From contig NW_019218041.1 of the NCBI RefSeq assembly GCF_002571385.2, forward strand, positions 311,231-375,230: 64,000 nt of DNA. The letters run 5' to 3'. This document shows, piece after piece, positions 12,193 to 48,600 of this stretch; position 1 is the first letter of the stretch; every line of letters starts with the position of its first letter. This DNA comes from Stylophora pistillata (taxonomy: Eukaryota). Both the position numbers and the translations under genes were made by a program. The notes beneath the pieces are model-generated. The model worked only from the letters and a program-made list of their open reading frames with translations, was not told the origin of the DNA and did no database searches.

Positions 12193-15100
12193 ATGGATTT
12201 CTCCGCAGAGAAAACACGTACCGCGAGGGATAAAATACAATTAAGGAATATCAACATCATTACGGACATGGACAGTGATCGGCGGGTGAACTGTGTCAAT
12301 GTAAAGCCAGATAGCTCTTCTGTAAAACCTACGGAAAAATGTAGGACTTGGAAGAAGGCGATTAACCGCAAAATATCTGCTAGGCTAGAAGCTCCTGATC
12401 AGGCATTGCTTTCTTTCAGGGATTTCGACGCAGCTAAGAAATTTTACAAGCGGAAGATTAAGATGTTGTCAAGTGTTGCGTGTGTAATGGGACTGATCTC
12501 GGCCGTCTTAGCACTGGTGGATATTGAACTCACCACGCGCGGGAGAGTCTCTGAGGAAGAGCTATCACCAGGAGATTTACGTACGGCTCTTGATAATCCG
12601 TTCAGACTTGCAGCTGTAGTAGTGAAGTCCGTGTTGTCTGTCTTATCGCTGTTGACCTCCTTCACAATTTATCGCATGTATGTGAACGAACTTAGCTACT
12701 TAATTGTCAGGAACATTTACCACGAGTCAGAGAGATTTGTTATGACTTCACTTTTTCCCACCTGTTTGGTAGAAGTGGCTCTTTGTCTGTTTCATGTTCC
12801 TCCTCTGTTAGACTACTATGGCATGCCTTATGAACTTCAGCTTTTGGTTTTCCTAAGATTATATCTCATGGCAAAATACGTAAAAGAACACAACATGTTT
12901 GTAGACAATCATGCCACAGCATTGTTCGCATCTGTGACACAAACGGAGATCTCGTCCATTTTCCTGATAAAAGCCTACTTTTTGAAGTTTCCTTTCAAAA
13001 TGGTATTTACATTTTACTCCCTCAACATTTTCTTGGGTGGCTATTGTGTTTACGTTATCGACAGGGCCCACAATACTTATTTGGTAAGTTTGAAAACTTT
13101 TTTTTTTCTAATTTTGTCTAGTCGTAATTTTTACTCAGGCTAAAATAATTGTCGAGGTCGTCCGAATACAAACCAGTATGTTTACTTAGATGGCCATTTA
13201 AGCCGTCTAGGGCGCCTTCATGCGCCGACAAACCAAACGCAGGTTTGTGAATGAGTAATTTGTTTACTTTTCGAATATGAATTCCGGTGCAAATGATATA
13301 TGAAGCGTCGGGTTATGGTGCCCTGGGCGAGTTTAGTACTTTATTACTCGACAAACGTTTGTTTTAGAAAGAGATATAATGGTTTCAGTTTCAACACTCT
13401 GACTAGTTTCTATTCCAAAGTTTTAATTCGTCATGACCCCATTAAGGATGAGGCAACTAGTTTCAAATTTCAGAACTGCTTCTCTGTTTGCAGTAAATTC
13501 GTTACTTTATATTCAATAATCTCGCACGTCCAAAAATTACGCCTATGTGTATGGTGTAAAATGTTTTATCTGTTAATCTTGATGCATCTACCACAGCTGG
13601 GGCTGGAGTGATTAAAAATTGAATAGTTCTTTATCAAGCCCACCTCTATTGTAATTCTAATAAGTTTTTTTGTGCTACAACAAGTTACTCTTTTCTTAAA
13701 CAAAGCGCTGACAGCAAATTAAACGACCCCATGCTTCGCAAAGAAGAGAAAGTAAATTCAGTTTTTTGATCAGTCAGCCTGGCTGTTGTTCGTTAAGCTC
13801 TTATCTCCTGTTGACACTCAATTCAGCGCTATCTTGCACTTCTCGTGGCGACCTCTTGCCTTCAAATATCACAAACAACGAACCGGTGTCTGAGGCTACT
13901 TCTGTTGGTCAAAACACATTAAGAAAAAGAAAATTACGCGCCTAAACGATGGCGAACACGCTGTTGTGTATTTGGAAATAAAGCGGCGATGGCCAGAGCT
14001 GAAAACAACTTTCACAGTGATGAGGTAACTTCTTAAGAAGAAATAAAAGGCGCTGCAATCGAGATCTCCCATCGGCAGCTTAGACTCTGTCACAGGACGC
14101 ACGGAAGCTTCAAAGAATTCGGAGAACGCTAGATTGCCTCTTCTTCGAAAACAAACATTTATGACTTCGTGATGTTCACGTGTCCAATGTAAAATGAGGA
14201 AATCAAAATGTAGTAAGCGTCTGTACAGAGCTAAAAATACTTTTTTCGTACTTAAAAGGCTACTAAATATCATGTACAGTCGTACAGCCATCAATCCCTT
14301 CCTTGAAAGTAAGTATTTAGAACGTTTCCGTTTCAGTACGCATGAATTATACTAAAATCTCGTCTTTGCCTATGTTATCAAGTCGTAGTTCTTACAAAAA
14401 AAACTAAGAAAACAACAATGAGTAATAGCTTTGCACGCACCGTTAAAGGGGTGCAAAACTCGGTGAAAATAAACGTGCACCAATGGTCAGATATACTCTT
14501 TTTGTGCGTTTGGTTCTGCAACTAGAAATTGATAGTTGGTCTTGTAAGCTTGTAAAGGAACTTAATTGGAGTACACGGGTTGGTGGTAATGCAGAAGAAG
14601 CTGTTAGATTTAGGGGAACAATGAGTGGGCTTGCTATAAAAGCTTACTTTGTTTGGATGACTTTTGTGTAAAACAATAGAGCGCTGTTGGTAATAAAAAC
14701 GATGAAGCAGTCGTTCTTAAGTAACTCTATAAACTAATTTGCTTGCTGGGTTTGCAAACATGCTTGCATATGTGGCGCTGTAAGGTATTAAAGATTTTTC
14801 CGTGTTCAGTAAAGGGGATTAATGAAGAGGTATAAGAAGAAAAATCGAAATATAAAACACTGGTTAGGGAAGGTTCCATTCATGCGAAAACTTGAAAAAA
14901 AAATCCACCATGGGAGCTCTCAGACTCGTTGAACTTTCAAACTGAAATTTGAAGCATTTGTATGACTCCCAAACGCTTTCATAATCATACACTGGAGAAA
15001 TGAGTATTCTCTGGTAGGATAAGTAGTTAACAATATCTTTATTCGTTATCGTGGAACAGCAGGGAATCTACCTAGGATAGCTAACACACCTTGTTAATTT

Positions 15101-18100
15101 CGCTAACTGGCATGCAAATTACTCGCTCAAATATTTGGTGCATGGAACGAATAACCTTTTTTCAAAATTAAAACTACAAAGGTGCAAGGGGTTCCGATCT
15201 TTTGACTTGCTAATTCTTTAACTCGTGACATTTCTAGATGAACCATAGAAATTAAAAACAAATTGGGTGAACCATTTCGCTAACTAGTTTCAAAACAAAC
15301 CTGGAGTTACATCTAATGAGACTAATTTGTACCAATTAGGGTCTAACCTCCTTTGGAGCAGAACACTATCGAAAGCGAAATTCAAATAACACCGATATTA
15401 ACAATTTTGACGCTCATTTTTTAAGAATAAATTATTTAAAAAAATACTTTTACTCCTCTTGCCATAAACTGAATAGTAAGACGAATTATGTTTTTAGTCT
15501 AAATGTAATCGTGATAAAGAATCGTCGTCTGAAACCATGGTGTAAAAAAAAAAAAATACACAATCATGCAATGTTAAATTAACGATATAAAATGTCGCTT
15601 GTAACCATATAATACATAGGACCCCAGGTTCTCGTGTTTTGGGATCAATGTTCTGCCCCTCGGCACTAATCGATTGAATACGACCTTGACTACAAAAACA
15701 GTGGGGCATTTGAAAAACTAATTCGAGCTTATTTAGTGTACCAAGTTAGTCTTATTGGTTCAATACACTAGTTGAATACATTGCTTAATCGCACGCCTGG
15801 CGCTATTATTGCCACATATTTTAATAATTTTGAGCTGTGCCTGAGGTATTTACAATAACACGAATTAGAAACACAGCGGAAGGACTTCAAAAAAGCCGGT
15901 ATTATATGTCTTTCTTTATTAAAAACAAAACTCACAAATTACGAAAACAGTTCCTTCAAATTAAGCGAATACTACAATCGAGACAAAACAGAATAGTTTT
16001 ATCCTTATTCCATATTCAATTTTAGGTAGATAAATTGCAAGCTAGTAACCATATTAATTTATTTCTAAAATGTAAAACGAAATAACTTTTACCTTTGTAG
16101 CAGGTGATTTTGCTCTGCGGGCACAAAATTACCTCTCAGCGTAAATTTCACCAACGTCACTTTTTTTTTTATCTATTTCACCATTTATTTGAGAGAGGTT
16201 CGGAAAAAAAAGCGAGTTAAATTTTGTTCTTCAATATTTGTGTGCGTTTTTTTTTGCGTTTCCTTCCCTATTTCTCCCCCCCCCCTCCCTTCCTCGCTGT
16301 TTCCTTACGTGTTCTCTACCTTTCTCAGTACATAAGGTCTCTAAGATCTGAACAGGACTGTTGTCAGACATTGGCTGATATTTCGATAAGACTGGTAAGC
16401 GGAAGTCACCATCAGAGTTTACTCGACTCTGCTGATGGGGAATGGGATGCAAAGAAAATTCATGAAAAAACAACGCCTTAATGCTGGTCAAAGGACAATT
16501 ACATCCAAGTGATTAACTACTTTGAACTATTTTTTAAAACTGCACGTTAAGTCTCTGTGTGAAACGTATCTTCAAGATTGTATTGCGTATTCTAAATTAC
16601 GTTTAACCTTTCTTGAAATGCACCATCAGGACACTGTTTGGATGCTCGTTGTCACCATGACAACGCTTGGGTTTGGAGATGTAGTACCTAAAGCCATCTT
16701 AGCCCGTGCGTTTGTTGGATTTGCGTCGGTGTTGGGAATATTCCTCATGGCTCTATTCATAAGTGTCGTACATGAATCCCTTCAACTTAAACAACAGGAG
16801 AAAAGAATACTAGCGACCATGGAGAATGCTGGTAATTTAACTCACTCATTTTTTCTTTTCATTTCTATTGTTGTTGCAGTATTATTGTTTCTGTTCAATA
16901 TGACACGAATTGACACGAATATAATACGAATTGAACTGACTTCTCTGTTCGTGTGAGTCTCTGATTAAATCAGTTGAACTTGGTAGTGCCTTGAACAGTT
17001 CATTTAAATTCTAACCAACTTTGCAAGGAAATGAGGACTTGATTGGCCAAGGGGGCCTTTTTTCTTCACTCAAAACAAAAACACACTGTGCTAAAGTCAT
17101 GTGAAGGTAGAAGCAATGTATAAGGACTTCAACGTAACTCTGTTTTCTCCACGCATTGTTCAGTATGAGAGGTTATCTTTCTTGTAGATCACCATTCGTT
17201 GAAAAAGAATCTTGCAGCCACGTGCATACAAAACACATGGAGACTATATCACTTTATACAGGAGAACACAGAAGCCCTCGTGATGGGAGACTGGTTCAAG
17301 TCTCAAAAGCTCAGAATGTTTCAACACAAACTTGCGGAAAGCGTGCGGCGGTGGAGGATCGTAAGGAAAAGCTGGTCAAGAGGTACGTGTTAGCATTTTT
17401 GAACGGGGGTGGGAAGTAAAACTTCAGTTGTCAACCCTAAACTAAAGCCAACGAAAGCCTCTAATACGATTTACAGAGCGTGGAATTATTTTAATCACTA
17501 TGTCTTCGATAGCATCCAAGCAGGAACATGTCTACAGTTATAATAATAGGAAAAGACATGCTATTTAACGAACAACATAACTGACTTCTTTTAGGCCCGC
17601 TACAGTTGGCGAGCTAACAGAATAAGCAAATAAAGCATACAGCACGCATCATATTTTCTCTGTTTTAACCAAGAAGAAGTCTTACCCATGTCGCAGAGAA
17701 CTCGACTTCTGGTCTTCAAAATTCGAATGAACACAATTAAATTATTGGTGACCTTTTTATCATCTCGAATACATAGACACTACAGTCTTAACAGTGTTCA
17801 CCGCAGAGCACCATAATCGCAAATACCTCAGGCTAGTCAGAGAGCTTAAATTGTTGACGAGAATACAGCTCGTTAGGATGCAGTTCCGGGTCCATAGAGA
17901 GGTTCTCTGTCCTCGAATACCAGAAATGAAGGGTTCATATCTGGTTAGTGGCGTAAATCAGTGGCTTCTACTGATTGAGCTGTTTGCCGGCAGGAACGGA
18001 CGTCGATAGAAACCTGATAAAGCATCACTTTCCTTCTTATTACACACGTGAACTTGCAGGAGTCCAGTTATCATTCCATACTTTTTTGCCAAACTTTCAA

Positions 18101-18950
18101 CAGATGACTATTGGAAGAAGTTCTTCCTGGCTGACGACATTGCTATGTTGCTAACTGACGTGTCAAGGAGTATCGGGAACGTGGAAGATTTTCTCCAGAA
18201 GCAAAATGGCGGGCGGCGTACTAGCAGAAACTCGTTGAAAAGCATTGCATCTCCACCTACCATATTGGAAGTAAGTAAACTGACTTTTTCGGAAAAAAAA
18301 AAGGCTAAACCTGCATTTATATATACGCACACTGGATAAGTAGCAAAAATGTGATGACCGGGATTAAGAAATACTGACTACGCGGAGATTTAGCGTTTTC
18401 TCGTAACTTTTGTTTTGGGAATTTACAGGAGGAACCGTCCGCGGAGCCAACGCAAAGGGACCAAAACAGAAAAATGCAGGCAGTATTGGTCGACTCGTGG
18501 CGGCCTTCAAACTTCGGACAAGCTAATGAATCCCCAGCCTCGACGAGACGTACACACTCGGACACGGGTCACACCCATCCGGGACATCTCCAACACCTCT
18601 CATTAACTTACAGTCCTGACAATCACACGTCAAATGGAAAACTGAACGACCTGAGAGAACATGGGCGGGTCACGCAACTTACTCGTCGGTCACGGTTAGA
18701 AAGTGATCCAATCGACAGAGGATATTTGCCTTCAGACGATCTTCAGGGAAAAGTAGAATCACTTGAGAATTCACTCGATCAAATTTATCGGAAAATGAAG
18801 ACCGAGCTCGGAGACGTTAGAGAGTCGATAAGGAAGATAAACAGATATTCAGCTGGGTCGAGTTATAGTATGAGCCCGTCACCGTCCACAAAAAACAATA
18901 ACATGTATCCCTGTCGATATCCACGAACAACTGACCATGTCGACGTATGA
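12193..18950 (+). CDS. Small/intermediate-conductance Ca2+-activated potassium channel (KCNN/SK-like), ~658 aa, 5 coding exons
   Basis: Exons 12193-13083, 16630-16831, 17188-17382, 18104-18270, 18429-18950, all GT-AG with compatible phases (1977 nt). Six TM segments; S3 end VEVALCLFHVPP; S4 LVFLRLYL (SK consensus MFLRLYL); pore WMLVVTMTTLGFGDVVP; CaM-binding helix KNLAATCIQNTWR. The paralog cannot be assigned. Confidence 0.88.
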
Positions 18951-21658
18951 CAGAACAGGGAAGAAAATAATAATCCAGCAGAGAATAGTTTCAAGTCACG
19001 TTCAGTTGCTGATTTCGTAAAAAATGCTTCATTTTGAACAAACCTGGCAAAAGATAAAACAATTTGCTGACGAAAAACGCCCAATTTGATCACTTTTGTG
19101 GACGATATTCCCCGTCTTTGTTCTCCATAATCGGACATATATGAAAAAGAGATTACCGTGCGTCACACTGGCGCAGCACAGCTCTTACCCTCTTTCCTAA
19201 GTTTCTGTTTTTTTTTTTTAAATCAAATGTTTCATTGTCTGAAAGACTCGAAATAAGCTGGTAGCCTAAAAGTAATCTTTGTTCAACAAGAAAATTTTAT
19301 TTTCAGCACAGGAAAAAATTGGATTGAGATCACTAATGCAAGAAGAGATATGAGAGGGGGTAAAGTAGTTTATATTTACGTCGTACATAACGATAAACTA
19401 AAAACAGAGCCATAGGTATTAAAGTTTACCAAATCAAAGTCATGCAGGCCATGAGATTTGAGAGATTAATCATGCCAGGAAATTACATACATTTTTAAGA
19501 ACATTTAGAGTAACTGGGAGGAGCTTCCGCGCTAATAGCTGAGCTAAAGAGGAAAGGAATGAGTAGATAGCACATTTGTCTTTTGAACCCTCCATTCCTC
19601 CATTCATTTGCAATCAGAGAAGGGTCAAGCTACCTTTACTTCTACCTAATCCATGTAGTTCGTGCAGAACATTGATAAAATAATAACAATACTAAGAGAG
19701 AGCAAAAAAGAAAAAAGCAATTAGAAATGATCAAGGAATTAGTTTGTAAAGAAACTGTGGAGCCATCTTAGCAGATGAAACAACGCGTAGTTAATAACGG
19801 TAAATTCTCATATCTTACTTGAAGAGCAGGAGTCTCCGTCAGAAGGGAGTAGAACATTCTTAGTTCCTTATAAGGAGAGGAGTACGAATTGGACACTACC
19901 TGGGAAAACGTTTTGACCAGCGACAGGTCGGTGATCTTTGTGGTTCACCCCAACGTTACCTGTTAAACTGATCTTGAAACAACCCGATGTTTTAAGAACT
20001 GAAAGTTGTATGTTACATATACTGCCATTTTTATTAACTTAAATAGTTGAATTGTATATAGTAGAGTTTTGTACTGATAAAACGTTTACAATCAATTTCT
20101 ATGGCTCCAAGTACTTAAGATAAAATTATGATGATAGACGCATTTAAGTCCACTGAATTCATAAATTTCACTGCGAGAGAACTGAATAAGACGAAATTTT
20201 CTTTGAACTGGGTGGGATACATGTCCTAGAAGTAACTGATAACCCTGAGAGACTTCACTGCTGTCTCAAGACTAACTTTAACATGACAATGCAGGGATCA
20301 AATTAACAGAGAGCAACGCGTGAAACAGGAATCCTTCCTCCCCGTTGCGGAACTACGCTCCCCCTCCTCCTAGTTAGCAGAACAACTTTCATCGCCAGTT
20401 AGCAGAACAGCTCTTTCCTTAAAAGGAATTAAGCTTGGATTTCCCCTAGTCGGCTTGTTTGCCTCGATATTGTGGAAAAACGCAGCCAGAGATTGAAACG
20501 CTTGGGTTGGTTTCCATATGATCGATGCTAGGCAGTTGTGATACATAAGGCGATTTGGCAAGCTTTCTGTGCTTCTTGGGATACTTTGTATCTATTCTAC
20601 TAAGCCCGGTTTCCATACGATCGCCGCTGCCGACGAAGTTGTGATCTTTACATCGCAACAACTGCGATCGCTGAAGATCAGTTAGATCACCGAGAATAGG
20701 GGGTATCTGAAGGTTTTTCCCATTGCAAGTTTGCCCCCTACCACCTTTATAAACTCGCACCCCGAAGTACTACAAATTTGTTCTCACCATAATCAGTTCA
20801 CCTCCAAATCTTTCAACTCATCCCCTTCCGGAAAAACATATTCCTTTTTTGTAGAATTCAGAATATACTTCGATCAACATGCAAGTTTTTTTCTGAGTCA
20901 GTCACTAAAATGTCTATGACTTGTCTCATAACCTGCTTCCTTAGGTTTGCAGAACGCGAATTCAATGAAGAACTAGAATGATTTGTTACACTCTTCTGAG
21001 GATGTCAAATGGCCGTGCACAACAATTTCTGTTTCTCCGTGATGTGTTCTTGCTTGTGATAGCAAGATCAGAAGTCTGGGGAACTGATTCCTGTCAATGT
21101 GAGCTGTCCATGAAAAGATTCGTGACAAACAAACGAAATAAACCCATCAAACACCAAAGTAAGTGGAACAGCTTTATTTCTCGTTCCTCTCTCGTCCCAG
21201 ACACGTTATGCTAACTTGCGTATCAAGCACTTTATCATGCAAACTACATATAAGAGATCGTTCCATCTCATCTTGGTATTGTTAGAACCACTAGGGTTAC
21301 TGGGTTACCAAAACAAATTCTATCGCCCCATCCTTTTTCGTTTGAAGTGGTATTACTCATGCTACAAATCATAACTAACCACGCAGAAAATTTCAGTTTC
21401 ACTCTTCTTATTATTACTATCAGTCAAGTTGACCTTACTCAAGACCCCTTATGGTGTACAGCGCCTTTGCATGACTTTTTGTTTTCGTTGTTGATGTTGT
21501 TGTTCTTACATAGGTAACCCTCTATTTTCTCTGCCTTTCCGTGCCCCCTCCCCTCCCCTACTCTAACCCACTCTAAATTTCTCTCACTCTGGGCGATAAG
21601 CTGAGAGAAATGAGAATTTCTTTCGACAGCAGCGCTTATTTAAGGCTCTAGAGAAGAA

Positions 21659-21945
21659 GGCAGTGTGGCTGAGTGGTCGGCGTGTCGGACTCGCAATCCG
21701 CCGCTCCCGGGTTCGAGTCCCGCCCAGACCACTACCTTGATTTGTTTCACGATAGCTCCAAGTTCAAATCCTCGGCCATGCTTGTAAATAGCCAACTGGT
21801 TTGCCTTCGGTCAGTTGAGATTCTTAATAATGTTATTCTCAATTTGAATTATTTGTTTCAGTTGTTTGGTGGAAAACCTGTAAACTAGCTTTTCAGCTAA
21901 GTGTTTCTACCCACTTTAAATAAGGATTATTATTATTTATTATTA
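21659..21945 (+). mobile_element. tRNA-derived SINE
   Basis: Pol III A box (gtggctgagtggtc) and B box (ggttcgagtcc) in a tRNA-like head, an unrelated body, and an AT-rich (tta)n tail. Confidence 0.8.
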
Positions 21946-22428: not shown

Positions 22429-25400
22429 TTACGGGAAAGACGAGGTAGATGAAGAAGATGATGCCCTTGTATGTTTTTCCGACGTTTCTTCTTGCTCGTC
22501 GTATTTTAAGGTGGGACGGAGAGACGCTCGGGTTAGTCCCCAAAACTTACTGGGCGACAGACCCTTTTTAACCGCAGTGAAACGCCATCCTAAGTGGTCA
22601 GCGCACTGTGCACATTCAGCTATAGTCCAAGCATACCTAAATAAAACAAGGGCAAAAACGTTATCTCCTCGTGGTGTACACTGAATTTGCTTTGCTCGTA
22701 ATCCACCTCTATTTTGTCCCAGAATTTCAAGTTCTCTTTCAAACTGCGCACTTCTTCAATTACGAGCATCTCACCGACTATCAGTATCAAAGTATTTCCG
22801 CATGTTAGTACTACCCTTAGCTCCGCTTTATGAGGTTTGCTTCCTTACCGGGATAGATAAGGTTTGAAAGAAGGTAAAAGTGAGTGGAAAACCTCATAAA
22901 AATACACAGAACAAGAAAATTAGACAAAGGTTACATCTGTCAAGGTTAGCAGCATCTGATGGGGATGGGTTGGGGGAGATACCGACTTACCCTGGAAACC
23001 AACTGTTCTGTGCGGTGGGTTTTCCTCTGAGTCTGATGCCGGAGGCTCGATAAAATGTTAGCGTTTCGTGCACCCAGCCATTCGGATTCACATAAGCACC
23101 TAACGGACCATCCAAGGACATGCTGAAAAATAATATAAAAATACTGAACAACGACTCGACTTCTAACTGAGTTTAAAACAACCAGATGATAACAGTTGGA
23201 CATAACTTTCACCCCTGTTGCAGTAAGGTATTACTATGCAACAACTTATCATTGAGACCAAGGTAAAAATGATTTAAAGAAAAGCCTGCTCCAAGGTTTA
23301 TTAATCAGCCCTCTCCTTCGTATGCATTATGTGTAGCGGTAACCGAGAAATGGGAAAAAATATGGCTATTTTAGGACAAACGTTCTTACACATACCCAAG
23401 ATTCCTTTACATCAACCGTATAAATCGCAAAAAAGCGAAAGGTTGTCACTTGGCAGATATGTGGAATGCTCTCTAACTTTCCGTCGATTGGGAACGATAT
23501 TACTGAAGAGAGTTTCATGGAACTCTGAGAATCATCATTTGAAACAATTCTCTGGAAAAAAATTATGTGATGTTCAGTTAGACTGGTTTGAACTAACCAC
23601 ATGACGGCTCACCTGAATAAATCGCTTTTTCCTACGATCTTGGTATCACAACTGCTACAGCACAACACGCTACACTGTAAGACAAAAATTGGGACATAAG
23701 GTGTGAATCCGAAAGGACGGGTAATCAATCGATGGTGGGTACTTCCTTATTTTGAAACACGTTAACATCCAGTTAACTAACGAAACCAAGGGTTATTGAG
23801 TTTGCGAAAACTTGTCTTCGTTGGGACTTAGAAACGGGAATTAATGTAAGTAAAAAATTTGTAATTAATTATATCTATAGAGAAATTATGAAAATTTGCA
23901 ATGAAACATCTCTGTATATTTTTGAAAATATTATGATTTGTAATATAACACCTCCAAATTTCGCCGTTAACTAACCTCGAATTATTCGCTTTGTACATAT
24001 ATGCATATAAGGGAATCAGTGACCTCGCGATTAATTAACTGCGAAATGTTCGTCTAAATATATGAGGGAATCGGTGACTTCGCGATTGATTAACTGCACA
24101 ATGTTCGTCTAAATATATGAGTGAATCGGCGACTTCGCGATTAATTAACTGCGAAATGTTCGTCTGAATATAGTAGGAATCAGTGACTTCGCGATTAGTT
24201 AACGGCGAAATGTTCGTCTGAATATGTTAAGGAATCAGTGACCGCGATTAATTAACTGCGAAATGTTCGTTCGGGAATCGGTGACTTCGCGATTAATTAA
24301 CTGCGAAATGTTCGTCTGAATATAGTAGGGAAGCAGTGACTTCGCGATTAATTAACTACGAAATGTTCGTCTGAATATAGTAGGGAAGCAGTGACTTCGC
24401 GATTAATTAACGGCGAAATGTTCGTCTGAATATGTTAGGGAATCAGTGACTTCGCGATTAATTAACTGCGAAATGTTCGTCTGAATATATGAGGGAATCG
24501 GTGACTTCGCGATTAATTAACTGCGAAATGTTCGTCTGAATATATGAGGGAATCGGTGACTTCGCGATTAATTAACTGTGAAATGTTCGTCTGCGATAAA
24601 AGGGCAAGACTCGAGGCACGGTCATCCAGGAAAAAGTTGGGAGAGGCAATGATTGGCAAGAGAGTTGAAGTGGAATATGAGGAGAAAGTTGATGGGGAAA
24701 CAAAGTATCTTGGATGGATACGTGGAACTGTTATGGAATATGACAAATTTAAGGGCTATCTTGTTCAGTTTCCAGATGATGTGGACTGGAGACTGGAGTC
24801 TCAGAAGCAAGGACGTACGAATTTTAGAGTAGTGCTTTTTTTGTTCTTTTCAACATAACGGGGCACTGTGCCAAAAGAGTTAAATCATGGGAGGGACAAT
24901 TCTAACAATCGTTGTTTTGAGCAACACCTTGTGGAACTTTGAGTCCTCCCGGAAATTTTGAAGATCCTTCCGAGTGTTTCGGTGACATTCTTGTAAAATG
25001 TCAAAACTTTGCTCTTTTTTTCTGCAGTATCCCAGAAATATGTCATATTTCCCATCAAAAATCCCGAGTCTTCTCGATTCTTTTGTTTTTCTCCCTAATA
25101 GGCCTTGTTAGAGTTGTCACCCCCTATTGTAACCTCCTTTTTTAGTTCATCAATTTGTTAAATTTTGCTTAAACGATAGCCAGACTCGCCTTAGCGTAGA
25201 GATACCAAGGCTCTGCACTGTTATTGCAACTGCTACATGTCGTAATTACTTTTTCAACCAAGCTTTAACATTGTTTTTTTCCCTTATCGCTAATGGTATC
25301 CCTAAGTTCTCTCTCTAAAGTACGTCACCCTTGCACACACTAAGATTAACATTAACTGAGTAGAAGCTTGATCGTTCACTTTTAGATACTAAATCAGCAG

Positions 25401-28400
25401 CCTTTTTGGATTTACCGATGGTGGAAATACCGCGAATTCTAGACATATTGTATAAGCATACCAACGCGACAACTCTAACGAACAGTGAACTTCAAACGAA
25501 AACTTTGTAAGAATGGCTTAATTACAACTCATGGGGGTCCCAGCCGAGGTGAGCAGAAATTCCCAAACATCATACAGTGAGAAATAAGAAAAACATGAAC
25601 ATTTCGCAGTTAATTAATCGCGAAATCACCAATTCCCTCATATATTTAGACGAACATTTCGCAGTTAATTAATGGCGAAGTCACTGATGCCCTAATATAT
25701 TGAGACGAACATTTTGCAGTTAATTAAACGCGAAGTACCTGATTTCCTTATATATGTAGACGAACATTTCGCATTTAATTAATCGCGAAGTCACTCACGC
25801 CCTGATATATTGAGACGAATCATTTTGCAGTTAATTAATCGCGGAGTACCTGATTTCCTTATACGTGTAGACGAACATTTCGCAGTTAACTAACTGCAAA
25901 GTCCTTCGCTTCTGTAACATATATAAAGAGACATTTTTGCTAAATTTCATTTGTCTCTATAGAGTGACATAAATGCAAACTTTGCAATTGTAAAATCTCT
26001 CCTTAGAAACGAGTAGACAAAAAACCAACAACAACAAAGACACGAAACCAATTGACCAGCATCAACATTAGAGGTCGTAAATTAAATGTCAACTGAATTC
26101 CTACGCGTTGGTATTCTTTGTTATACGTCCTACATAATAATCATGGTTCACACAAAAAGAAAGAAACCAGAACACAACAATAAAAAAAGGGAAGGACCGA
26201 CAAACGACAGATGCATATTTGATAAGAACGTACATAATTTGTTTACTAGTAAAGAGGAGATTGCTCTGAAAACTTTGTAATTTGTTCAATAGTAAGAAGT
26301 GTATCTGTTAAATTACCTTACGGACTATTTCAAGCTCTTTTCGCAGTCTTTGAGTAGGACAGTTGATGCCAAGTATTTGAAGTCTAAGGCTATCATCTAA
26401 GGGCATATTGGCTGCCACCCAAAAAGAAAAGTCTGGAAATAAAAGACACCAAAATGTAGTTCACTGTTTTACCTCATGAAGGAGTTACATGTAGATCAAA
26501 CAGTTGGTGTCACTCTACTAAGATGCCTCCATCACGATCAGCTGTTTATAAAGTACTGCATCAATTTAAAGTGATATTGTTTGCCTATCTACAGACTTGC
26601 TCTGACTTTATTCTTGCATTTTTATCTGTTAAATGTACCAATGGTAAATAAGATTAAACATGCAATACTTGGATGCTTGCATTTTTCCCCTCAAGCTATG
26701 CTGAATGACATAACCATGAAATCAGCTTCCCTAAAATTACTGAATTATCTTCTTCTCATACCAAAGGAAAAATGAAAATTCTTTAATCAGTTTACCTGGA
26801 AGCATTAGCTTCTTAGAACTTCCCCATAATACTGTAAGTACACTAACAATAGTCTCTGTCTGGGGTAGAAATATGTACAGATATTTGTCTGCAGTATTAT
26901 TATTCTTCAGATGTTTGTGGAATGCAAGGGAAAAAATCTTCACCAACAGTGTCACCATTTACTGCCTGGGATGTTTACTTTTCACTTTTCAATTCCTCCT
27001 GGTATGATTTTATGAATAAACAAGCTTGCCCACTCTTCAAAATATTCTCTCATCTTGAATTACATTTCAAACTAAGACTTTAACTACAGTGGATGTAAGT
27101 TAAAGAATTGAGGAATATCACTTGGGGTATATTATGAGATATTCCCCAGATTTTGCTGGGGAGATTTTTGTTAGGTGATACATTTAGACCAATGGCACAC
27201 CAGCAAAAGTATTTAATGGATTAGAACCAATTATACCATCAACACTAGCTGAAGCACAAATTGTTAATCATCATTACCTATTGGTGATTGAGGAATGTTG
27301 TCAATACGTAGAGTTTCACTCCAACTTTTTAACTCTTTCTTTATCAAATCCATCAGGACAAACTAAAACAAATTTAAGTTTGACACAAAAGTGATTATTG
27401 GGTTTCTTGAAAAGCTTCCAAGTTGGTGTTAAGTGTTGTATTGTTGGGACATACTTTGTATGCAGTAAAGAAATGATTGGTACAGCGGTTGGTTGGATGC
27501 CTGGGGTGTTTAATATAAACAGTTTCCAGTAAAGTGTTATCAAGCATGGCACTTGCTTACAGTGACTGGGAATTTATTATATTTGATGGAAATACTCTCA
27601 AAGACTTAGCTCATTGAAAAGAACCTTTATGATCCAGTCTTTGAAGAGTCAGTGTTTAGACTCATGTGTTTCTGTCCTTTACTCGCTGCATGAAGACCTG
27701 GAATGACTGCCAGGTTGATCACGTGACAGAATCCAAACAATTTCTCCCTCATTAATAATTTTTACAAATTTAAATCTTTTTTAAAACTTACTGGATTGTA
27801 CAACTCATATACCCAGCTTGGCCATGAACTAAGACTAGTGGGTACCTATGAAGTTCAACACAATCAATGAATCAAATTCCAATATATAGGGTACCATTTA
27901 CATATCTATAGCTCTGTAACAAACTTGTAAATACACTGTCCTGTTTTTGATTGCAGACCAGTACCAATAGTCCATTCAACTCTTGTTTTGCATCATTTAA
28001 TGTTTTCGTGTTTATCTAAGATGACTGTAAGCACCCTGAACAGAATTCTCAAAATTTTTTTACATAAACCAACAACACCATTAAAAAAGATGGTTAAAGG
28101 AAAGAAAAAACTATAATTTTCATATTAGCAGTGTCTCAAGCTTGTTTCTTAGCTTTAGCCACACAGACCAACATGAGAGGAACTGTTTGAATAATAGCTA
28201 CGTGCAACTGTAACTGGTAACACTTTTCTTGAATAGTAATATTTTAAATCAACCATGTTACCCCATCAAAGTAAATTTGATGCCAACTCAAAATATCTCA
28301 CCTTGTGACACTTTTTCTTCCCTAATCTGTTTTTTCCTGAGGTGACCTGGTGTGGTTTTGCAAGGTAGCCATGAGTGGTTGCCTGGCAACCAAACTTGTG

Positions 28401-31034: not shown

Positions 31035-31282
31035 GTTTGTTTTGATTCTGCAACTGTTGCTAGTACTTCTGGGAAGACTGGCTGTCCTTGGCGGAAGTGA
31101 GACGTCATCTTTGCCCACTGACCAATCACAGAACGCTTCGTATGCTGCAGTTTGAAGGGAACATTCTGCTACGGAGAAGACTACACGTTAGCTTTGGTAG
31201 AAAACATTTGGTCGCTATTCTTTCGGATTGAAATTCTCTCGCTCATCGACTGTTTGCCTATTGAATCACAGATAAAAGGACT
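31035..31282. promoter_or_regulatory. Bidirectional promoter CRBN/DNAJB9
   Basis: Only 248 bp between the divergent ATGs; CpG-rich. ETS/GABP-type GCGGAAGTG (31091-31099), CRE/XBP1-like GACGTCATC (31101-31109) and CCAAT (31122-31126). Confidence 0.75.
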
Positions 31283-34200
31283 ATGAACTGTGACAATCTT
31301 GTTCTTCTGGTAACGGCGGCATTTAGTATCCTGGTGGTCGATTTGGCTGTAGCCAAGGACTATTATAAAATATTAGGGGTTCCTAGAGATGCGAACGACA
31401 GACAGATCAAGAAAGCATTCAGGAAGCTTGCTGTAAAATATCATCCCGATAAAAATAAAGCTAAAGATGCTGAAGCAAAATTTAGAGAGGTTGCTGAAGG
31501 TAGGTAATGTAATGTAAATTCTTGATTTAGACTTCAATATATCTCTCTTGAAATGTGTTTGTTGCTTGTGATTGAGCCTTAACAAGCGAAACAATCATAT
31601 TGAGCAAGATTTACCAGTTACCTTAACCAGTCTTTTTTTTAACATTTAAGTTGTATTGTTACTCGTCCGAATGAAAAAGGAAGTCTTGATTTCCTTTTTT
31701 ATGGATTATAAATTGGTAAAAAGCCACGACGTTAGTTAGATATCTTCAAATACCGGGTGTCGATTTCTGTGAATCTGTTATGTTCACTGTCAAACCTCTT
31801 GGCAGATATTTAAATTTTGTCTTGTTCGTGATGGAGAGACGATCGCCTCACTTCCTTAAAACGAATATTCTTGTTTTCAAAGACTGTTGGGTTTTAGTTA
31901 ATCTCGGCATTGTTGACATTACAGTGTACTTGTGGATTGCACAACAATGGTAAAATTCCACAACAATATCTAGACGTTTTATTGTTTTGATTTTTTTCCC
32001 AGTCGTGTGTGGATTGTCAACGTTTAAGTCGTTCTCCCAAAGTCAGTAGAATGGTTGTGAAACTTTGTAAAGGGATTTAAGCCTGCAAATCTCTACAATT
32101 ATGTTGTGCTTTCTTATTCGGAAACACCTTATTATTTTTTGAGAAGTGGTCACTTCACTATCTCGAGTATAATTACATGCGATGTACATGGATATATGTG
32201 AACACTACAGGTGTAAGATCACAAGGTACATTGTACAATGAGGCCAGATATTTTGAAACGGTTGTCATTTTTATTGTGGGTCTGAAGATGTCAAACAGTT
32301 GCCATAAACATTTCAGTTTCAACCTGAATTATTAAGTATCCAGGAACATTTTTATTCTCAATAAATTACCCATCAGTTTACAGACAGTTTTGATTTCTTC
32401 ATGTGTGTTATATTGTACAGATAAGAGACTTTTTATGATTGATTAAAGCCTCCACAATGGCTAGGTATCTGTCTTGTACTGTTAAAGAAATTTCAATCGT
32501 CTGTGTGAGAAAGAAGTGTAAATTGAACAGTGAGAAGCTTATATGAAACCATAAATTTCAGTTTACCAAACACTTACTGCTTACTTCCAAGTGCACTTTA
32601 CCCTGGATATTAAAACTGCAGAATTTGTTTTCAGTCCCTCAAGTAATCTTAAAACTGATTCTAAAACTACTAACCTTAGGGATGTTGTTAACAAAATTTA
32701 TTTCCCCTCTCTACCCATGCAGCATATGAGGTACTATCAGACGAGAAGAAAAGGCGGCAGTATGACCAGTTTGGATCAGAAGGGATGAATAATGATGGCT
32801 TCAACTTCCATCAAGGATTTCAGAGCTTTGATGATTTGTTTAAAGACTTTGACTTTGGTTTTGGAAATGGACACAATCATAGGGGAGGAAGCGGAGGTTT
32901 TAAGTTTTCATTTGGAGGAGGGTTTGATGATTTCTTTGATGAGGATGATGATGAAGATGACGAGGAAGATGACTTTTTCGGAGGAGGATTTAAGTTTGGT
33001 GGCTTTGGAGATTCATTCTTTAGTGATGACAGCTTTCATACTGGTAGACATAGAGATGACTTTTACTCTGAAGATAATGGGGATAGATTCCACAGAAATG
33101 TCAGACATTCAGAGTTTAAACAGACACAATCAAGTAAGTGAGATGTAAAAGTATATTTTACAAATTATTGACCAAAACGATCATTGATCAAGATTCTACT
33201 ACAGAAGAGCCAATGAATGTGGAAATAGCAACTGGCAGTGTTATTTGTTATCATGTGGTCAATGAGTGGTTATCCACTGTGACCACAGGGATTAACAAAA
33301 AACCACTGTAGTCATGGCTGGTAGGTTTACTAACTTCAACAGAAGACTTAAAACTAAAATAAACTGAAAAAGTACACTGATGACATATGCAAAAGTTTGT
33401 TGAATGACACTGTATAAAGAAAACATAAAAATAAAATTTGAAATGAAATGCTATACGGGAACTAATTAAACTTAGTACATGAAATACACTTATTTACCTT
33501 GTCCAGCCTTAGGATCGTGAAATGGACAACAAAAACGCGCTAAATAACTATAAATCTTGCAAAGGTTTGAGTCAACTAACTTGTAATCTGCAAGAGGAAA
33601 AACACACTGTTCATGTGACTGAAATGGCATGAAAACTTAACCATGCACAAACTGGGCTAGTTACAGTCACTTTTACAATGTCTCAAAGGTAGTACAGGGA
33701 AAAGAACAGTACAGCTCAGAGGTACATGGCTAATGCACATGCAAAACCTTTGCTTGTTTTTTGCATTACGCACAAAAAAGTGCAGTCAAAAGTGCATATC
33801 TTAAGTGTGTTTTAACTTTTGTTATTCAATGCAGTCAGCTTACTTTAGTTTCTCATCAAATCATTGTGATAAACTGTTGTTTAGTACCTTCACCGCCATC
33901 CACTGAAATGTATCTTTGGTTCTGGAATTGAAATATAGTAGGCTAGCAGTAGTGAGGTGCATGCCATGGTGAAGAAAATAGCAGGTGTTCCACAGATCTT
34001 AGCTTTCCAGGTTTTGTGTTCATGTAGGGTTAGTGAAGAATTGTGAATGAGTTTATTGTTGCACTGCCTTTGAATGCATCTTTTTGTTAAATAACAGTTA
34101 ATTCCAGTATAATTATATGGCAAGGTTTTCATTAGGTAGATCTGAGCATTCTGATTGGTTCTTACTTGCTGGGCAGTATTTTCCCATATAGACCATATTT

Positions 34201-42600: not shown

Positions 42601-45600
42601 TATCTGATGAAATGACTGGTTCAAAGAAAAAGGAAGTGGTGAAATTAGTATTTGTTAAGTATTCACTATAGTGACAATTACTATCTTGTACATTTGCCGC
42701 TTGCTTTTGGCCAACCGTAGAAAAGACATTGTTTAGCATGTTCGGCAATGCCACTGGATTACGTCAAACCATTTCCATTTAGTCGTTTAAGGCTAACAGT
42801 TAAGGTTCATTACGTCATTGATTCCAATCCATGCTTTCTTCATGTAATGATCAGCGGTATTACACGTTACGGACATGCACATGAGGAGAACACATGAGCA
42901 TCGTTTTGTAAAGAGGTTGGATTTTTAAATTATTAAAACTGTTATCAAAATCCATCGTGTTTTCATATCAAGAATATTACATGGTGTCAGGAGTAAAACA
43001 CGAAACAGAAACTCAACCATCCATCTAGCGAAAATTTGGACAAAATACAGCCGGCGTTTCAGAGCAATCAACATTGGCGATCCAACTTCATGTCACAGGA
43101 TCTGTCACTTCTTGACACGCCGGAAGAGGTAGAAAACACCGAAGAAACACAACAACCAGTGGAAATCGAAGAACACACAATCAAAATGGCGATGCACTTA
43201 AGCCTCACAGTACCTCTTGAGTTAAGTGGGGGAAACATCTTGGCCAACTGGAAGAAATTCAAACAGAAATATGTAAATTACAAAATTGCGACCGGAATAA
43301 GCTTGAAGGACAGTGCAACCAGGGTAGCAACACTTCTGACAGTTATCGGCAATGATGCTATCGATGTTTTCAACACTCCAACCTGGGATGAAGAAGACGA
43401 TGACAAGAAAAGTGATAAGGTACTGTCGAAATTTGAGCAATACTGTGAACCAAAGAAAAATGTCAGCTACAAAAGATACAAATTCTTCTCAAGGGCCCAA
43501 GAAAGCGGCGAAAGTATCAAGCAGTATGTAATGATACTAAAAAAGCTTTGTGAAACATGTGAATTTGGGACATTGAAAAATTCTCTCATCAAGGATCGAA
43601 TTGTACTTGGTGTAAACAACACGAAAACGAGAGAAAGACTTCTCCAGGTGAAAGACCTTACACTGGAAAAAGCAGTAGACGTAGTACGATCTGCAGAGGC
43701 CACAAAAATTCAAATGAAAGAACTAGACTGTGACTCATCAGTGCATTGAATTGAAAAAGAGAAAAACAAATTTGCAGACAAAAAGACACCCTCAGCTAAT
43801 GATGAAAAAAGACCTCCAAGCAAGAAGTTCAATTGCTGCAACTGTGGAACTAAACATGGTCTAAGAGAGTGTTCTGCATATGGCAAAACATGCAACTATT
43901 GTCAGAAAAGAAATCACTTCCAGAGTGTATGCAGATCACGGAAAAAAGTCCATGGACTGGACGTAGATCAACAAGAGGAAGAACAAAATCTTAATTCAAC
44001 CCTAATTGTAGGAGCTGTCACTACAGACGTTCAGATCTACAATGGGGAATGCTATGTGAAGCTTCCAGTAAAAGGGCATATCACAAAACTCAAGATAGAC
44101 ACTGGCTCTCAAGTTAACATCATGCTGTTTAAAGACCTAAAGAAGATAGTTGGTAGCAACCCACAGATAAATGCCTGCACACACAATCTAGTAAGCTACT
44201 CCGAAGACAAGCTAACTGTACTTGGCACTATTAAACTACCAGTGAAATCTAAAACAGATGTCGAACAGGAGCTGACGTTCCACATAGTAGAAACAAATCA
44301 ACCAGGAGTATTGGGGTTCACATCATCTAGAGATCTGGGTCTAATTGAAGTGATTATGGCAAACAAGAGAGAAGAAGACCAAACCAAACCAAACAGAGGA
44401 AAGGAAGCTAAGAAGCTCTCTGAAGAACTGAAAGAAGAAATGCTGCAAAAGTACAAGCAAGTATTCACAGGTTTTGGACGTTTGGAAAAACCTTACCACA
44501 TTGAAATAGACCCCACTGTGACACCTGTTGTACACCCACCTAGAAATGTCCCAGCAGCTCTTCGCGACCGAGTGAAGAAAGAATTGGATGACATGGAAAA
44601 GCGAGGGGTTGTTCGTAAGATAGAAGAACCCACAGACTGGGTCAACTCCATGGCCATTGTTGAAAAGCCCAATGGTAGTCTGCGGATCTTTTTAGATCCA
44701 AAGCACCTCAATAACGCAATAAAACGGGAACATTTTCAGCTACCCACCATAGAGGACATCACTACACGTATGGCAAATGCAAAATGGTTCACCAAGCTAG
44801 ATGCTAACCAAGGATACTGGCAGATACCTCTTGATGAAGAAAGTCAACTTCTAACCACCTTCAACACACTGTTTGGGCAGTACTGTTATCAAGTCACTCC
44901 ATTCGGAATCACATCTGCCCAAGAAGTTTTCCAAAAGCGGATGAGTCAACACTTCAGCAACTTGGAAGGAGTTGAAACCGACATCGATGACATAATAGTG
45001 CATGCAGAAACAGAAGAAAAACATGACCATCATCTACAAGCCGTCCTGGAATGATGTGAGAAGATTAACCTAACCCTAAACAAAGAAAAGTGCATTTTCA
45101 AAGTCAAAGAAGTCACCTACATTGGTCACAAACTCACACAAGAAAGAATCAAACCAGATGATGAAAAGGTGTGTGCCATAAACGACATGCCTGCACCAAC
45201 TGATAAAAAAGGAGTAGAAAGACTCCTTGGAACTATCAACTATCTGGGCAAGTTCATTCCCAATCTGGCAACCGTCACTGAGCCTATCAGAATTCTGCTA
45301 AGAAAGGACATCGAATTTCAGTGGTCATATGAACAAGACAAAGCACTACAAGAAATCAAAAATATCCTAACCAAAGATGGAGGGCCAGTCTTGAGATTTT
45401 TTGATCTTCAAAAACCTGTTACCATCAGCTGTGATGCCTCCCCAACTGGTCTAGGAGGGGTGCTACTACAAGGTGGATGTCCTGTTGCATATGCTTCAAG
45501 ATCCCTCACGGATGCAGAATCAAGATATGCTCAAATAGAAAAAGAGCTCTTAGCTATTCAGTTCAGCCTAGAACGTTTCAACCAATACACCTATGGCAAG

Positions 45601-48600
45601 CAAGTCACCATAGAATCAGATCACAAGCCCCTTGAGGCCATTGTTAAAAAGGCATTGGCATCAGCACCACTAAGACTGCAAAGAATCCTACTAAGAATGC
45701 AGAAGTATGACTATACATTGGAATACAAACCAGGAAAAGAGTTAGTACTTCCTGACATGCTCTCCAGAGCACCACTTCCCGAGACCACTTCTGGCAGCAT
45801 GGAAGAAGAAATTGCATTACATGTCCACCTACTAACTTCTAACTTACCAGTCTCGAAGCCAAAACTAGAAGAAATTAAAGAAGCCACAGCAAATGATCCA
45901 TCAATGAAAGAGCTGAACGAAATGATCAAATTTGGATGGCCAAAAACAAAGTCTCACATGCCAGCAAATATTCAAGTCTACTGGCATGTAAGAGATGAGC
46001 TCTCTGAAATCGATGGTATTACTCTCAAAAATGACAGAATATTGATCCCATCCTCTATGAGAAAAGAAATGCTCCAACAAATGCATCAAGGCCACATGGG
46101 GATGGAAAAATCCAAACGACGAGCAAGAGATGTACTATACTGGCCAGGAATGAATTCTCAAAGCAGCGACATGATAGCAAGATGCACCATTTGTTTAGAG
46201 CATCAACAGCGAAACACATAAGAGCCAATGATACCTCAGCGCATACCAACCAGGCCCTGGGAAATGGTAGCCACAGACCTGTTCACGTGGGACAAATCTG
46301 AATACCTGATAATTGTTGACTATCACTCAAGATATTTTGAAGTAGCCAAGCTTCCAGACACCAAAAGTACTACAGTCATAACCTTCCCCAAATCCATGTT
46401 CGCCAGACATGGAATACCATCTGAAGTGATCAGCATCAATGGTCCCCAGTATTCCTCAAAAGACTTTTCGCTGTTTGCTCAACAGTGGGAATTCAAACAT
46501 AAAACTGTCAGTCCACAGTATCCCCAAGCCAATGGTCTTGCTGAGAAAGAAGTTCAAATAGTGAAAAATCGACTAACCAAAGCTAAGCAAGATCGCCAGG
46601 ATCCCTATTTAGGACTACTTGAATACAGGAACACCCCAATAGATAACACTGGTTCACCAGTGCAACTACTCATGAGCAGACGACTCAGATCAACAATTCC
46701 CACAACTGACGCACAGCTCCAGCCTAAAGTCCTTGATTCACACAAAGTTATGGAAAAACTGAGGCTCAAACAAGAAAAACAAAAGCACTATTTTGATCAA
46801 CATGCCAAACATCTCCCCACGTTAGAGAAAGGTGACTGGATCAGAGTGCAAATGGGAAGCCATTGGAAACCGGGCGTTGTAACAGATCATGCTGGAACAC
46901 CGAGATCTTATAGGATTTGAACTGATGAGGGTAAAGAGTACCGTAGAAGTAGAAGAGGATTGATGAAATCACCAGTAAGCAGTCCATCAACAACTGACAT
47001 CTCACCTAATACTGATTCTTCAATGGTGAGAGCTTATGAACATTCACCCTCCAAGGAAACAGCAGACCAAGCAATCCCACTTGTTGAAAGACCCACTACA
47101 ACATGTCTCAACCAAGAGGAAATTGATTCATTTGAGGATGAGATCCCAGAGCCTCGCAAGACAGCAAGTGGAAGAACTGTGAGAAGGCCTCTACGTTTCA
47201 AGGATTATGTTGCATAACAATAAACACATCTTACGTCTTGATGTTTGATGAAACTGTGGGACCACTGTGCCAAACATTTGTCTTAACGACTTTGTACACA
47301 TTTCTAACAAGTTTAAGTTAGAGGAAATATCGCACTTTTAATAAGTTCTTGTTTTTTATTTCGTTTCACTGCCCAGCGTTTCTCAATTTGGTGTTAGTGT
47401 GCATACACTCTGTTGTGTTCATTTTTTCTTCTTTTCATTTTCATTGGGGGAAGTTGTAATGATCAGCGGTATTACACGTTACGGACATGCACATGTAGAG
47501 AACACATGAGCATCGTTTTGTAAAGAGGTTGTATTTTTAAATTATTAAAACTGTTATCAAAATCCATCGTGTTTTCGTATCAAGAATATTACACTTCATA
47601 TTGTTCATACGTTGTGTAAAATACTTGTGATAATAGAGCTTTTTACTAAGAAAAATTAGGGATAGAATTTGTATTTGTCGGTATCCCTTGAGGCGAATAG
47701 AGCATTCTTGATTTTTATAGATATGATTATTCCTTTGGAAATCCAGGGTTTAAGGATTGCTTGAGTTTTCACTTTGATAGAGGTTTAAGGGGAGCATGTT
47801 TATCTAACAGTTTGTTAAGTTTGTTGTAAATTTTTGAAAAAGAGATATCAATATTTTCATTTGTTCTTGCAAGAATCCCTTCCCAGCTGACTTGTGCTAA
47901 TTCAGAGTTAAAATCCTCTTTTGAAAACCTAGAGAAGTCACGCACCATGGTCTTTTTAGGGAAAATTGTTTTGCAGGAGAATTCAGTCAAGCAAAATTGA
48001 CAGTAGTGGTCACTTATGTCTGAGATAATGTTGTGACTTGTGATTCTTCCACAATTTTTATTTACAAAAATGTTGTCAATTAGAGTGGCCGAGCTGCTTA
48101 TTCTAGTTGGTTTATCAATCATTAAACGAGTAGCTTTGTAAGGTGAGTAAGAATTCTTTAGTGAAATTGCATGTTTCGGCATTGAAGAGGTTTATGTTGA
48201 AATCACCCATTATGTAAACTGTCTTATTGGACTGACTAAATCTCTCGAGGGCTTCATCAAAATATGGCTGAAAGCTCTCTGGGGAATTGTGCTGTCTGCA
48301 GATTATTCCACAGATAATATTGCTTTTCTTTTCAAAGAGAAACTCCACCCACAGAACTTGGAAGGCACCGGTGACATTTTTTCTGTTATCTTGCACTTAA
48401 ATTTGTCCCTAATGTACACACCAACACCTCCAGCGGAAAGAGGTGATGGAACAAATTCAAATTCATAACCTGGTAGAGATGGTAAATGTTTTGGTAGATC
48501 AAAATTTGAATTTTAGTCTCAGTTATCCCTATAATACTGAAAAGATACTCCAGTTTGTTTAAAAGATGAGTTTCTAAATTTTCAAAATTTCGTTTCAGGC

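Follow-up and report, generated by a model that had tools for sequence, protein, structure and literature searches.

A non-autonomous foldback element in a coral cereblon intron probably descends from a Mutator-type transposon with a kinase–RecQ–transposase polyprotein

What is the foldback element that sits in an intron of the cereblon (CRBN) gene of the coral Stylophora pistillata, and from which kind of transposon does it come? The element lies in a stretch of 64,000 nucleotides of contig NW_019218041.1 (positions 311,231 to 375,230, forward strand), which we call the window and whose numbering is used throughout. An earlier note, made from the letters of the window, had read it as a deletion derivative of a possibly uncatalogued DNA transposon, with inverted arrays of a palindromic 55-bp unit around two convergent open reading frames (ORFs), one of them Tudor-like. 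Our analysis makes it very probable that this 2,166-bp element is a non-autonomous derivative, likely mobilised in trans, of a coral Mutator-type foldback transposon (Table 1). The parent would encode a protein of ~2,000 aa with, in this order, a kinase, a possible peptidase, a RecQ helicase, a GCM-like zinc finger, the DDE core of a Mutator-like element (MULE) and a Tudor-like tail. Within the Mutator/foldback kind the family stands out by its polyprotein, and the kinase–RecQ–transposase fusion of the parent, which the earlier note had missed, is the main novelty.

The + strand ORF, for which the note had claimed a Tudor-like pattern, is a real remnant of a transposase gene. It comprises the last ~80 codons of the ~2,000-aa single-ORF protein and is 83% identical to P0008 across 65 aa. 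On C605 the DNA upstream of this remnant, joined to it with no gap, encodes a RecQ zinc/RQC region, a Cys/His-rich finger and the DDE core. The copy on C180 (~12.6 kb including N gaps, on a single scaffold) reads left end, array, 3.4-kb spacer, kinase, gap, finger and DDE core, short gap, core and right array. Three metagenome loci (L142, L144 and L154) are 85–86% identical to the window core; L142 and L144 span kinase to tail, and the coding DNA of L142 joins a window-type core without a gap.

In a sister family, on C26, an open frame of 2,018 codons is intact; it is annotated as 'ATP-dependent DNA helicase RecQ [Stylophora pistillata]'. Its profile matches are Pkinase (E 1.9e-34), DEAD (4e-25), recQ_fam (6.5e-60, at 203 bits vs a cut-off of 219.8), Helicase_C and a weak MULE match. 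RecQ, BLM and WRN were the leading PDB matches for the helicase, RQC was matched in one homolog (E 0.0046), and the features of the RecQ family (superfamily 2 core, DEVH, Zn-binding and RQC) are present in the C26-type helicase. DEVH is found in all nine long homologs, the kinase domain in five and all three kinase motifs in four; the rest begin later. Other corals and an octocoral also have homologs; the named ones come from Montipora capricornis, Paramuricea clavata and Pocillopora meandrina. A profile of the transposase region matched 1,659 cluster representatives at E <= 0.001 and 154 at 1e-30, in clusters that carry no taxonomy. The linker between kinase and helicase (L071:1985-2713 on C26, and homologs) keeps HQG, DG-x-N-x-C and DTH motifs, which suggest a papain-like peptidase; we liken the Cys and DTH set to the catalytic Cys...Asp-x-His of Herpes tegument-type (C76) deubiquitinases. 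A sequence search of the PDB gave no meaningful match for this region. As ORFs of this kind are annotated as host 'RecQ' genes, coral DNA-repair and kinase gene counts would be inflated.

The sister family has arrays of 57 bp (L081-L110). Of 71 candidates, 40 yielded a total of 243 matches to it, and its units are almost identical to one another; this family is thus probably larger and younger than the window family. On C26 an intronless Mab-21/cGAS-like ORF of 878 codons (L070:538-3171, -) lies ~5.7 kb upstream of the intact sister ORF.

The boundaries of the window copy differ from those first proposed. The note had placed the ends at 23874 and 25963; dispersed copies and a 9-bp duplication put them at 23836 and 26001, 38 bp further out on both sides, and the termini are GG/GA. 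CACTCTATAG, which had been taken for a CAC-type right end, starts 38 bp internal to the true one, so that the assignment to CMC/EnSpm is wrong. A CAC terminus at 25963 was ruled out, since the copies keep matching 38 bp beyond it. The imperfect outer terminal inverted repeats (TIRs) described in the note hold up, with 63 identities across the terminal 100 nt, a value reached by 0 of 500 shuffles. When the family's left and right ends were paired in a 9x9 test, the duplication of the window copy was the sole pairing with fewer than three mismatches; none of the other cross-pairings among the nine left and nine right ends gave one. An Rfam search returned no match.

The inverted arrays are also as described, with 10.9 units on the left and 5.4 inverted units on the right, and each 55-bp unit contains the palindromic dyad TTCGCGATTAATTAACTGCGAA, self-complementary at 18 of 22 positions. 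The arms pair over up to 223 nt at 88% complementarity, and the element thus shows the TIRs with inverted tandem subterminal repeats that define a foldback structure. Related families have arrays with units of 57, 64 and 66 bp whose sequences differ from the 55-bp unit. By inspection, every one of these units contains an inverted pair of GCNNNTAR half-sites, which read GCGATTAA/GCAGTTAA in the window family, GCCGTTAA in the C26 sister family, GCCAATAA in L140 and L146, GCCACTAA in L141 and GCCGTTAA/GCAGTTAA in L137. Conservation of the half-site across families supports the arrays as transposase-binding sites, and the dyads are likely to serve as such. In Muta1 the repeats have a shown transposase-binding role, and subterminal repeats help binding and excision (PMC5499845).

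A search of the genome (398 Mb, G000) gave 58 matches from 16 candidates. By exact-pattern searches the genome holds nine left and nine right ends; in six copies, of 441 to 2,471 bp, the two ends share a contig. These genome-wide copies with shared termini bear out the view of the window copy as a deletion derivative of a dispersed foldback transposon family. The junction between the array and the last ~80 codons is common to four copies (window, C547, C260 and C766), which therefore form one deletion subfamily. Two pairs of loci, C44:78971 with C235:271415 (about 440-500 bp) and C786:779 with C1410:13257, have identical end and flank and represent either duplicated junctions or redundant haplotypes. 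In the copy on C260 a very high-copy element of ~310 bp (L003:1190-1505) is nested in the left array.

Several observations favour a place for the transposase among the MULEs. In an alignment of homologs the catalytic residues are conserved (D301 in 60/63, D372 in 76/78 and E516 in 62/67), as is a CxxH after the second D (C397 in 75/78, H400 in 76/79). A structure model from 111 sequences reached a predicted local distance difference test score (pLDDT) of 90.6; the single-sequence fold (pLDDT 34) gave no usable model. For the modelled catalytic region the closest Foldseek match is ISCth4 of the IS256 family (PDB 6xgx, 6xg8; E 2.9e-4), which differs in being a small prokaryotic enzyme with 12-15% identity and no accessory domains. 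Pfam MULE was matched in 21 and Agenet in 10 of the 111 homologs, and the Atlas neighbours of the transposase are MULE clusters. In the N-terminal finger the Cys/His set is conserved, and GCM (1odh) and WRKY33 were each matched at a modest Z of 5.8. Sequence searches of the PDB found nothing for the transposase region or the tail. In the sister family, perfect 9-mers flank three pairs of ends (C56, C26 with C585, and C760). MULEs are recognized by a DDE core with CxxH, a duplication of 8-11 bp (usually 9) and an N-terminal finger of WRKY/GCM1 type, and the family has the DDE core with CxxH, the 9-bp duplication and a GCM-type finger. The duplication is 8 bp in hAT and P and 2-4 bp in CMC/EnSpm; its length here favours MULE over hAT, P and Kolobok (TTAA).

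The proposed convergent ORF on the minus strand did not survive comparison. It is open in 0 of 7 own-genome copies and 0 of 3 metagenome copies. Between C605 and the metagenome copies this region has 10-13 indels over about 580 bp, most of which shift the frame, against 0-1 in the 234-bp tail. Substitutions by codon position are flat in the minus ORF (19/22/17) and show a third-position excess in the transposase (16/11/27). The only Pfam match was at chance level (E 0.15). By these sequence measures the minus-strand 'ORF' is non-coding or long dead.

Two other superfamily assignments have to be weighed against MULE. An element of CMC/EnSpm type, with CAC ends and a pair of convergent genes, as CACTCTATAG near the right end would suggest, is next to impossible: that sequence is internal, the termini are GG/GA, the duplication is of 9 bp, the minus-strand ORF is not conserved, and a single CxxH is present in place of the C(2)C and H(3-4)H pattern of CMC (PMC12730594). 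A relative of AcademH or KolobokH is very improbable, even though both carry RecQ-type helicases. AcademH is described as a helicase-encoding DNA transposon of animals and fungi with 9-10-bp duplications (PMC10045372, PMC10799480), and the coral family shares with it the RecQ-type helicase and a duplication of that length; KolobokH joins a RecQ helicase to a CxxH-type DDE transposase, and Kolobok has CxxH and RR/YY termini (PMC9587614). However, AcademH probably belongs to another transposase superfamily: Academ is absent from the five CxxH superfamilies given in PMC9587614, whereas CxxH is conserved here. Kolobok duplicates TTAA, and KolobokH has its RecQ downstream and is described from fungi only (PMC9587614); in the coral family a 9-mer is duplicated and RecQ lies upstream. 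The profile, Atlas and Foldseek evidence all points toward MULE/IS256.

Some of the data weigh against a Mutator-type parent with this polyprotein. The duplication is present in only one of the six two-ended copies of the window family. No intact ORF was found in that family's genome copies, all copies seen being broken; C180 and C2412 contain assembly gaps, and the left end on C26 was not found beside its ORF, the matching 9-mer being on contig C585. VIA-align gave a near-tie between Hermes (Z 10.1), ISCth4 (9.9) and P (9.4), so that MULE is not picked by the fold alone, and the Pfam MULE match is weak (query 17.5 bits vs a cut-off of 27.6; best E 2.5e-4). The peptidase call consists of the motif and one weak match (Herpes_teg_N in 1 of 11, E 0.019).

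Paralogs of the flanks bear on the missing duplications. Both flanks of C260 belong to one reverse-transcriptase-like repeat, of which 8 of 14 fetched paralogs match the left flank, and by comparison with the seven paralogs measured, 147-158 bp of target are absent at the element. At C44, 863-871 bp of target are absent vs 8 of 13 paralogs (one paralog also gave 2,153 bp via a tandem copy). The element's termini are intact in both cases, and the two copies lie exactly at target deletions of 157 bp and ~869 bp. C547 (~300 bp, 76% identity) and C668 (~7.3 kb) are compatible with target deletion, each on the basis of one paralog only; C402 lay outside the comparison as its flank is nearly unique, and the sample is small. 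An assembly chimera is an unlikely cause at C260 and C44, because both flanks are colinear with uninterrupted paralogs; the flanks of C260 are additionally linked by one contig of run X2. Since the termini are intact to the base, the deletions would be made by the transposase or arise by recombination between locally duplicated copies. Copies without duplication are known in Tm1 (PMC3169594) and Galileo (PMC3573991), foldback families without helicase, and no helicase is thus needed to explain the missing duplications. Should the frequency of flanking deletions in this small sample prove typical, these families add to structural variation in corals.

The five two-ended copies without a duplication could speak for replicative movement. 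RecQ would then unwind the element after strand transfer so that it is copied where it stands, and adjacent DNA would be lost through intramolecular events. Of these copies, two coincide exactly with a target deletion and another two fit one; a sister pair on C760 has 1.7 kb between outward-facing ends with one 9-mer on both sides, which is cointegrate-like; and DEVH is kept throughout the long homologs. We nevertheless consider this unlikely. The C760 layout (C760:14547-16247) fits a tandem duplication or a scaffolding or assembly error equally well, Tm1 and Galileo have copies of this sort and no helicase, excision of Muta1 produces double-strand breaks (PMC5499845), and the copy number is low, with nine ends of each kind. 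Equally speculative is a broader scenario for the anthozoan Mutator polyprotein, to which we give little weight: RecQ would copy the element in place, kinase and deubiquitinase-like domains would disarm host repair or silencing and the Tudor tail would pick chromatin targets. RecQ would in that case have been captured independently by DDE transposons for a third time, and flanking deletions would arise routinely in coral genomes.

Under the favoured reading, a Mutator-type foldback transposon moved by its transposase, the enzyme would bind the GCNNNTAR dyads, pair the ends, cut at the GG/GA termini and insert with a 9-bp stagger, as the foldback MULE Muta1 does. RecQ would probably unwind the self-annealing arms or drive copying in donor-gap repair. 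Aborted copying would then leave array-joined internal deletions such as the window copy, and one-ended or local re-insertion would produce the flanking deletions at several copies, of which this combination of domains is a likely cause. Host repair or silencing proteins are the probable targets of the kinase and peptidase-like domains, and the Tudor-like tail probably anchors the enzyme on chromatin or DNA. The lineage offers a Mutator case for the role of RecQ in cut-and-paste transposons, and its intact ORF, defined ends and putative binding dyads make the role of the helicase directly testable.

For the tail, the Tudor-like domain proposed in the note is supported by the structure model. 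Residues 597-673 best match the Tudor domain of RDM15 (PDB 7de9; Z 7.6, root-mean-square deviation 2.2 over 57 residues, 25% identity), followed by PWWP, PHF19, SMN and PcrA Tudor folds; the modelled strands (606-672, pLDDT about 90) form a Tudor barrel. The Agenet profile matches 7 of 8 tails, and the Atlas leads are Tudor clusters with scores of 0.80 or less. It had been suggested that such a domain reads methylated histones and steers insertion into expressed gene bodies. The closest fold is a reader of H3K4me1, the window copy lies in an expressed gene, and Tyr611, Trp626, Tyr640 and Phe644 are conserved in tail homologs. We find the suggestion possible but doubtful. A Z under 8 may reflect the common barrel only, and the region also matches the C-terminal Tudor of PcrA, RimP and integrase chains within two-domain alignments. 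The RDM15 cage consists of Trp616, Tyr623 and Tyr641 (PMC8184781). By pattern alignment Tyr623 would correspond to position 627 of the tail, where no more than 13 of the 35 homologs have an aromatic residue. The insertion sites of C260 and C44 are inside other repeats.

The coral family resembles the foldback MULEs Muta1 (PMC5499845), Tm1 (PMC3169594) and Rehavkus (PMC6446971) in its TIRs of tandem subterminal repeats, the unequal repeat numbers at the two ends of non-autonomous copies, the 9-bp duplication, DDE with CxxH, the N-terminal zinc finger and the occurrence of copies without duplication. It differs from them in its units, dyads of 55-66 bp in place of 12-14-bp motifs, and in outer TIRs that are only ~63% alike. 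Its ORF of ~2,000 aa also includes kinase, RecQ and Tudor-like domains, of which none is given for the 50 MULE groups in Table 1 of PMC6446971. The full text of PMC6446971 contains neither 'helicase' nor 'kinase', and that of PMC13359780 none of 'helicase', 'kinase' and 'Tudor'. Accessory genes of other kinds are on record, namely alpha-kinase genes in fungal IS3EU (PMC12730594) and TRADD-N fused to Mutator elements in marine animals (PMC8195603). The literature searched yielded no MULE that carries a RecQ, kinase or Tudor domain; Repbase and Dfam were outside this search and may hold a coral MuDR entry. With that scope, the family may well be uncatalogued, as the note had supposed.

Placement of the insertion in a CRBN intron, also claimed before, is confirmed by spliced RNA reads (Table 1) and by the exons beside it, which match LON and Yippee-Mis18 profiles as those of cereblon would. 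Minus the element and one duplication the intron measures 467 bp, and neighbouring introns measure 292-845 bp. Both element junctions are present on contigs of X1 and X2, two DNA-type runs from different studies; an empty CRBN allele was found in the contigs of neither run, and such contigs show presence, not absence. The few RNA reads over the core are mostly of the transposase sense strand and differ in sequence from the window copy, so they probably derive from other copies. A minimum-energy fold, computed without a shuffle control, pairs 321 bases across >800 nt, which makes a foldback in CRBN pre-mRNA plausible. An effect of such dsRNA on CRBN finds no support, with spliced reads that span the intron and no surplus of A>G at very low depth. 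A>G versus T>C places numbered 13/9 in X21, 6/8 in X24 and 12/12 in the DNA run X2; RNA depth across the element was 0-4.4 and the reads diverge from the window copy, and these counts are uninformative on A-to-I editing. The window copy looks inert, an ordinary dead derivative, and is probably a neutral passenger that splicing removes from CRBN.

Table 1. Coordinates of the element, its parts and the host intron in the window
Feature	Position	Strand	Remarks
Whole non-autonomous element, 2,166 bp	23836..26001	+	Matching of dispersed copies ends exactly there; both junctions on contigs of X1 and X2
Left target-site duplication CTTAGAAAC, 9 bp	23827..23835	.	Identical to 26002-26010
Left terminus (GGGAATT...) and outer imperfect TIR	23836..24004	+	Includes one degenerate dyad at 23960-23981
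Left array, 10.9 x 55 bp, 11 dyads, half-site GCNNNTAR	24005..24593	+	Likely transposase-binding sites
3' remnant of transposase polyprotein gene, basic linker and Tudor-like tail	24595..24832	+	No start; frameshift near 24790
Downstream internal region, holds the proposed minus-strand ORF	24833..25596	+	No coding constraint on the proposed ORF
Right array, inverted, 5.4 x 55 bp, 6 dyads	25597..25893/25900	-	Tandem units in inverted orientation
Right outer TIR and terminus, GAGAGATT... read inward	25901..26001	-	9 right ends in genome by exact pattern
Right target-site duplication CTTAGAAAC, 9 bp	26002..26010	.	Identical to 23827-23835
CRBN (cereblon) intron hosting the element, 2,642 bp	23675..26316	-	Splice joint 23674/26317: 7 reads in X21, 4 reads in X24

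Elsewhere in the window, a SINE-like (short interspersed element) repeat of very high copy number lies in the transcribed 3' region of CRBN (21640-21908), and a DnaJ-domain gene (31265-33148, +) starts head-to-head with CRBN. Further left are exons like those of a calcium-activated potassium channel (12187-18947, +). The gag-pol frames of a Gypsy-like long terminal repeat retrotransposon (42997-46917, +) are broken by a few stops.

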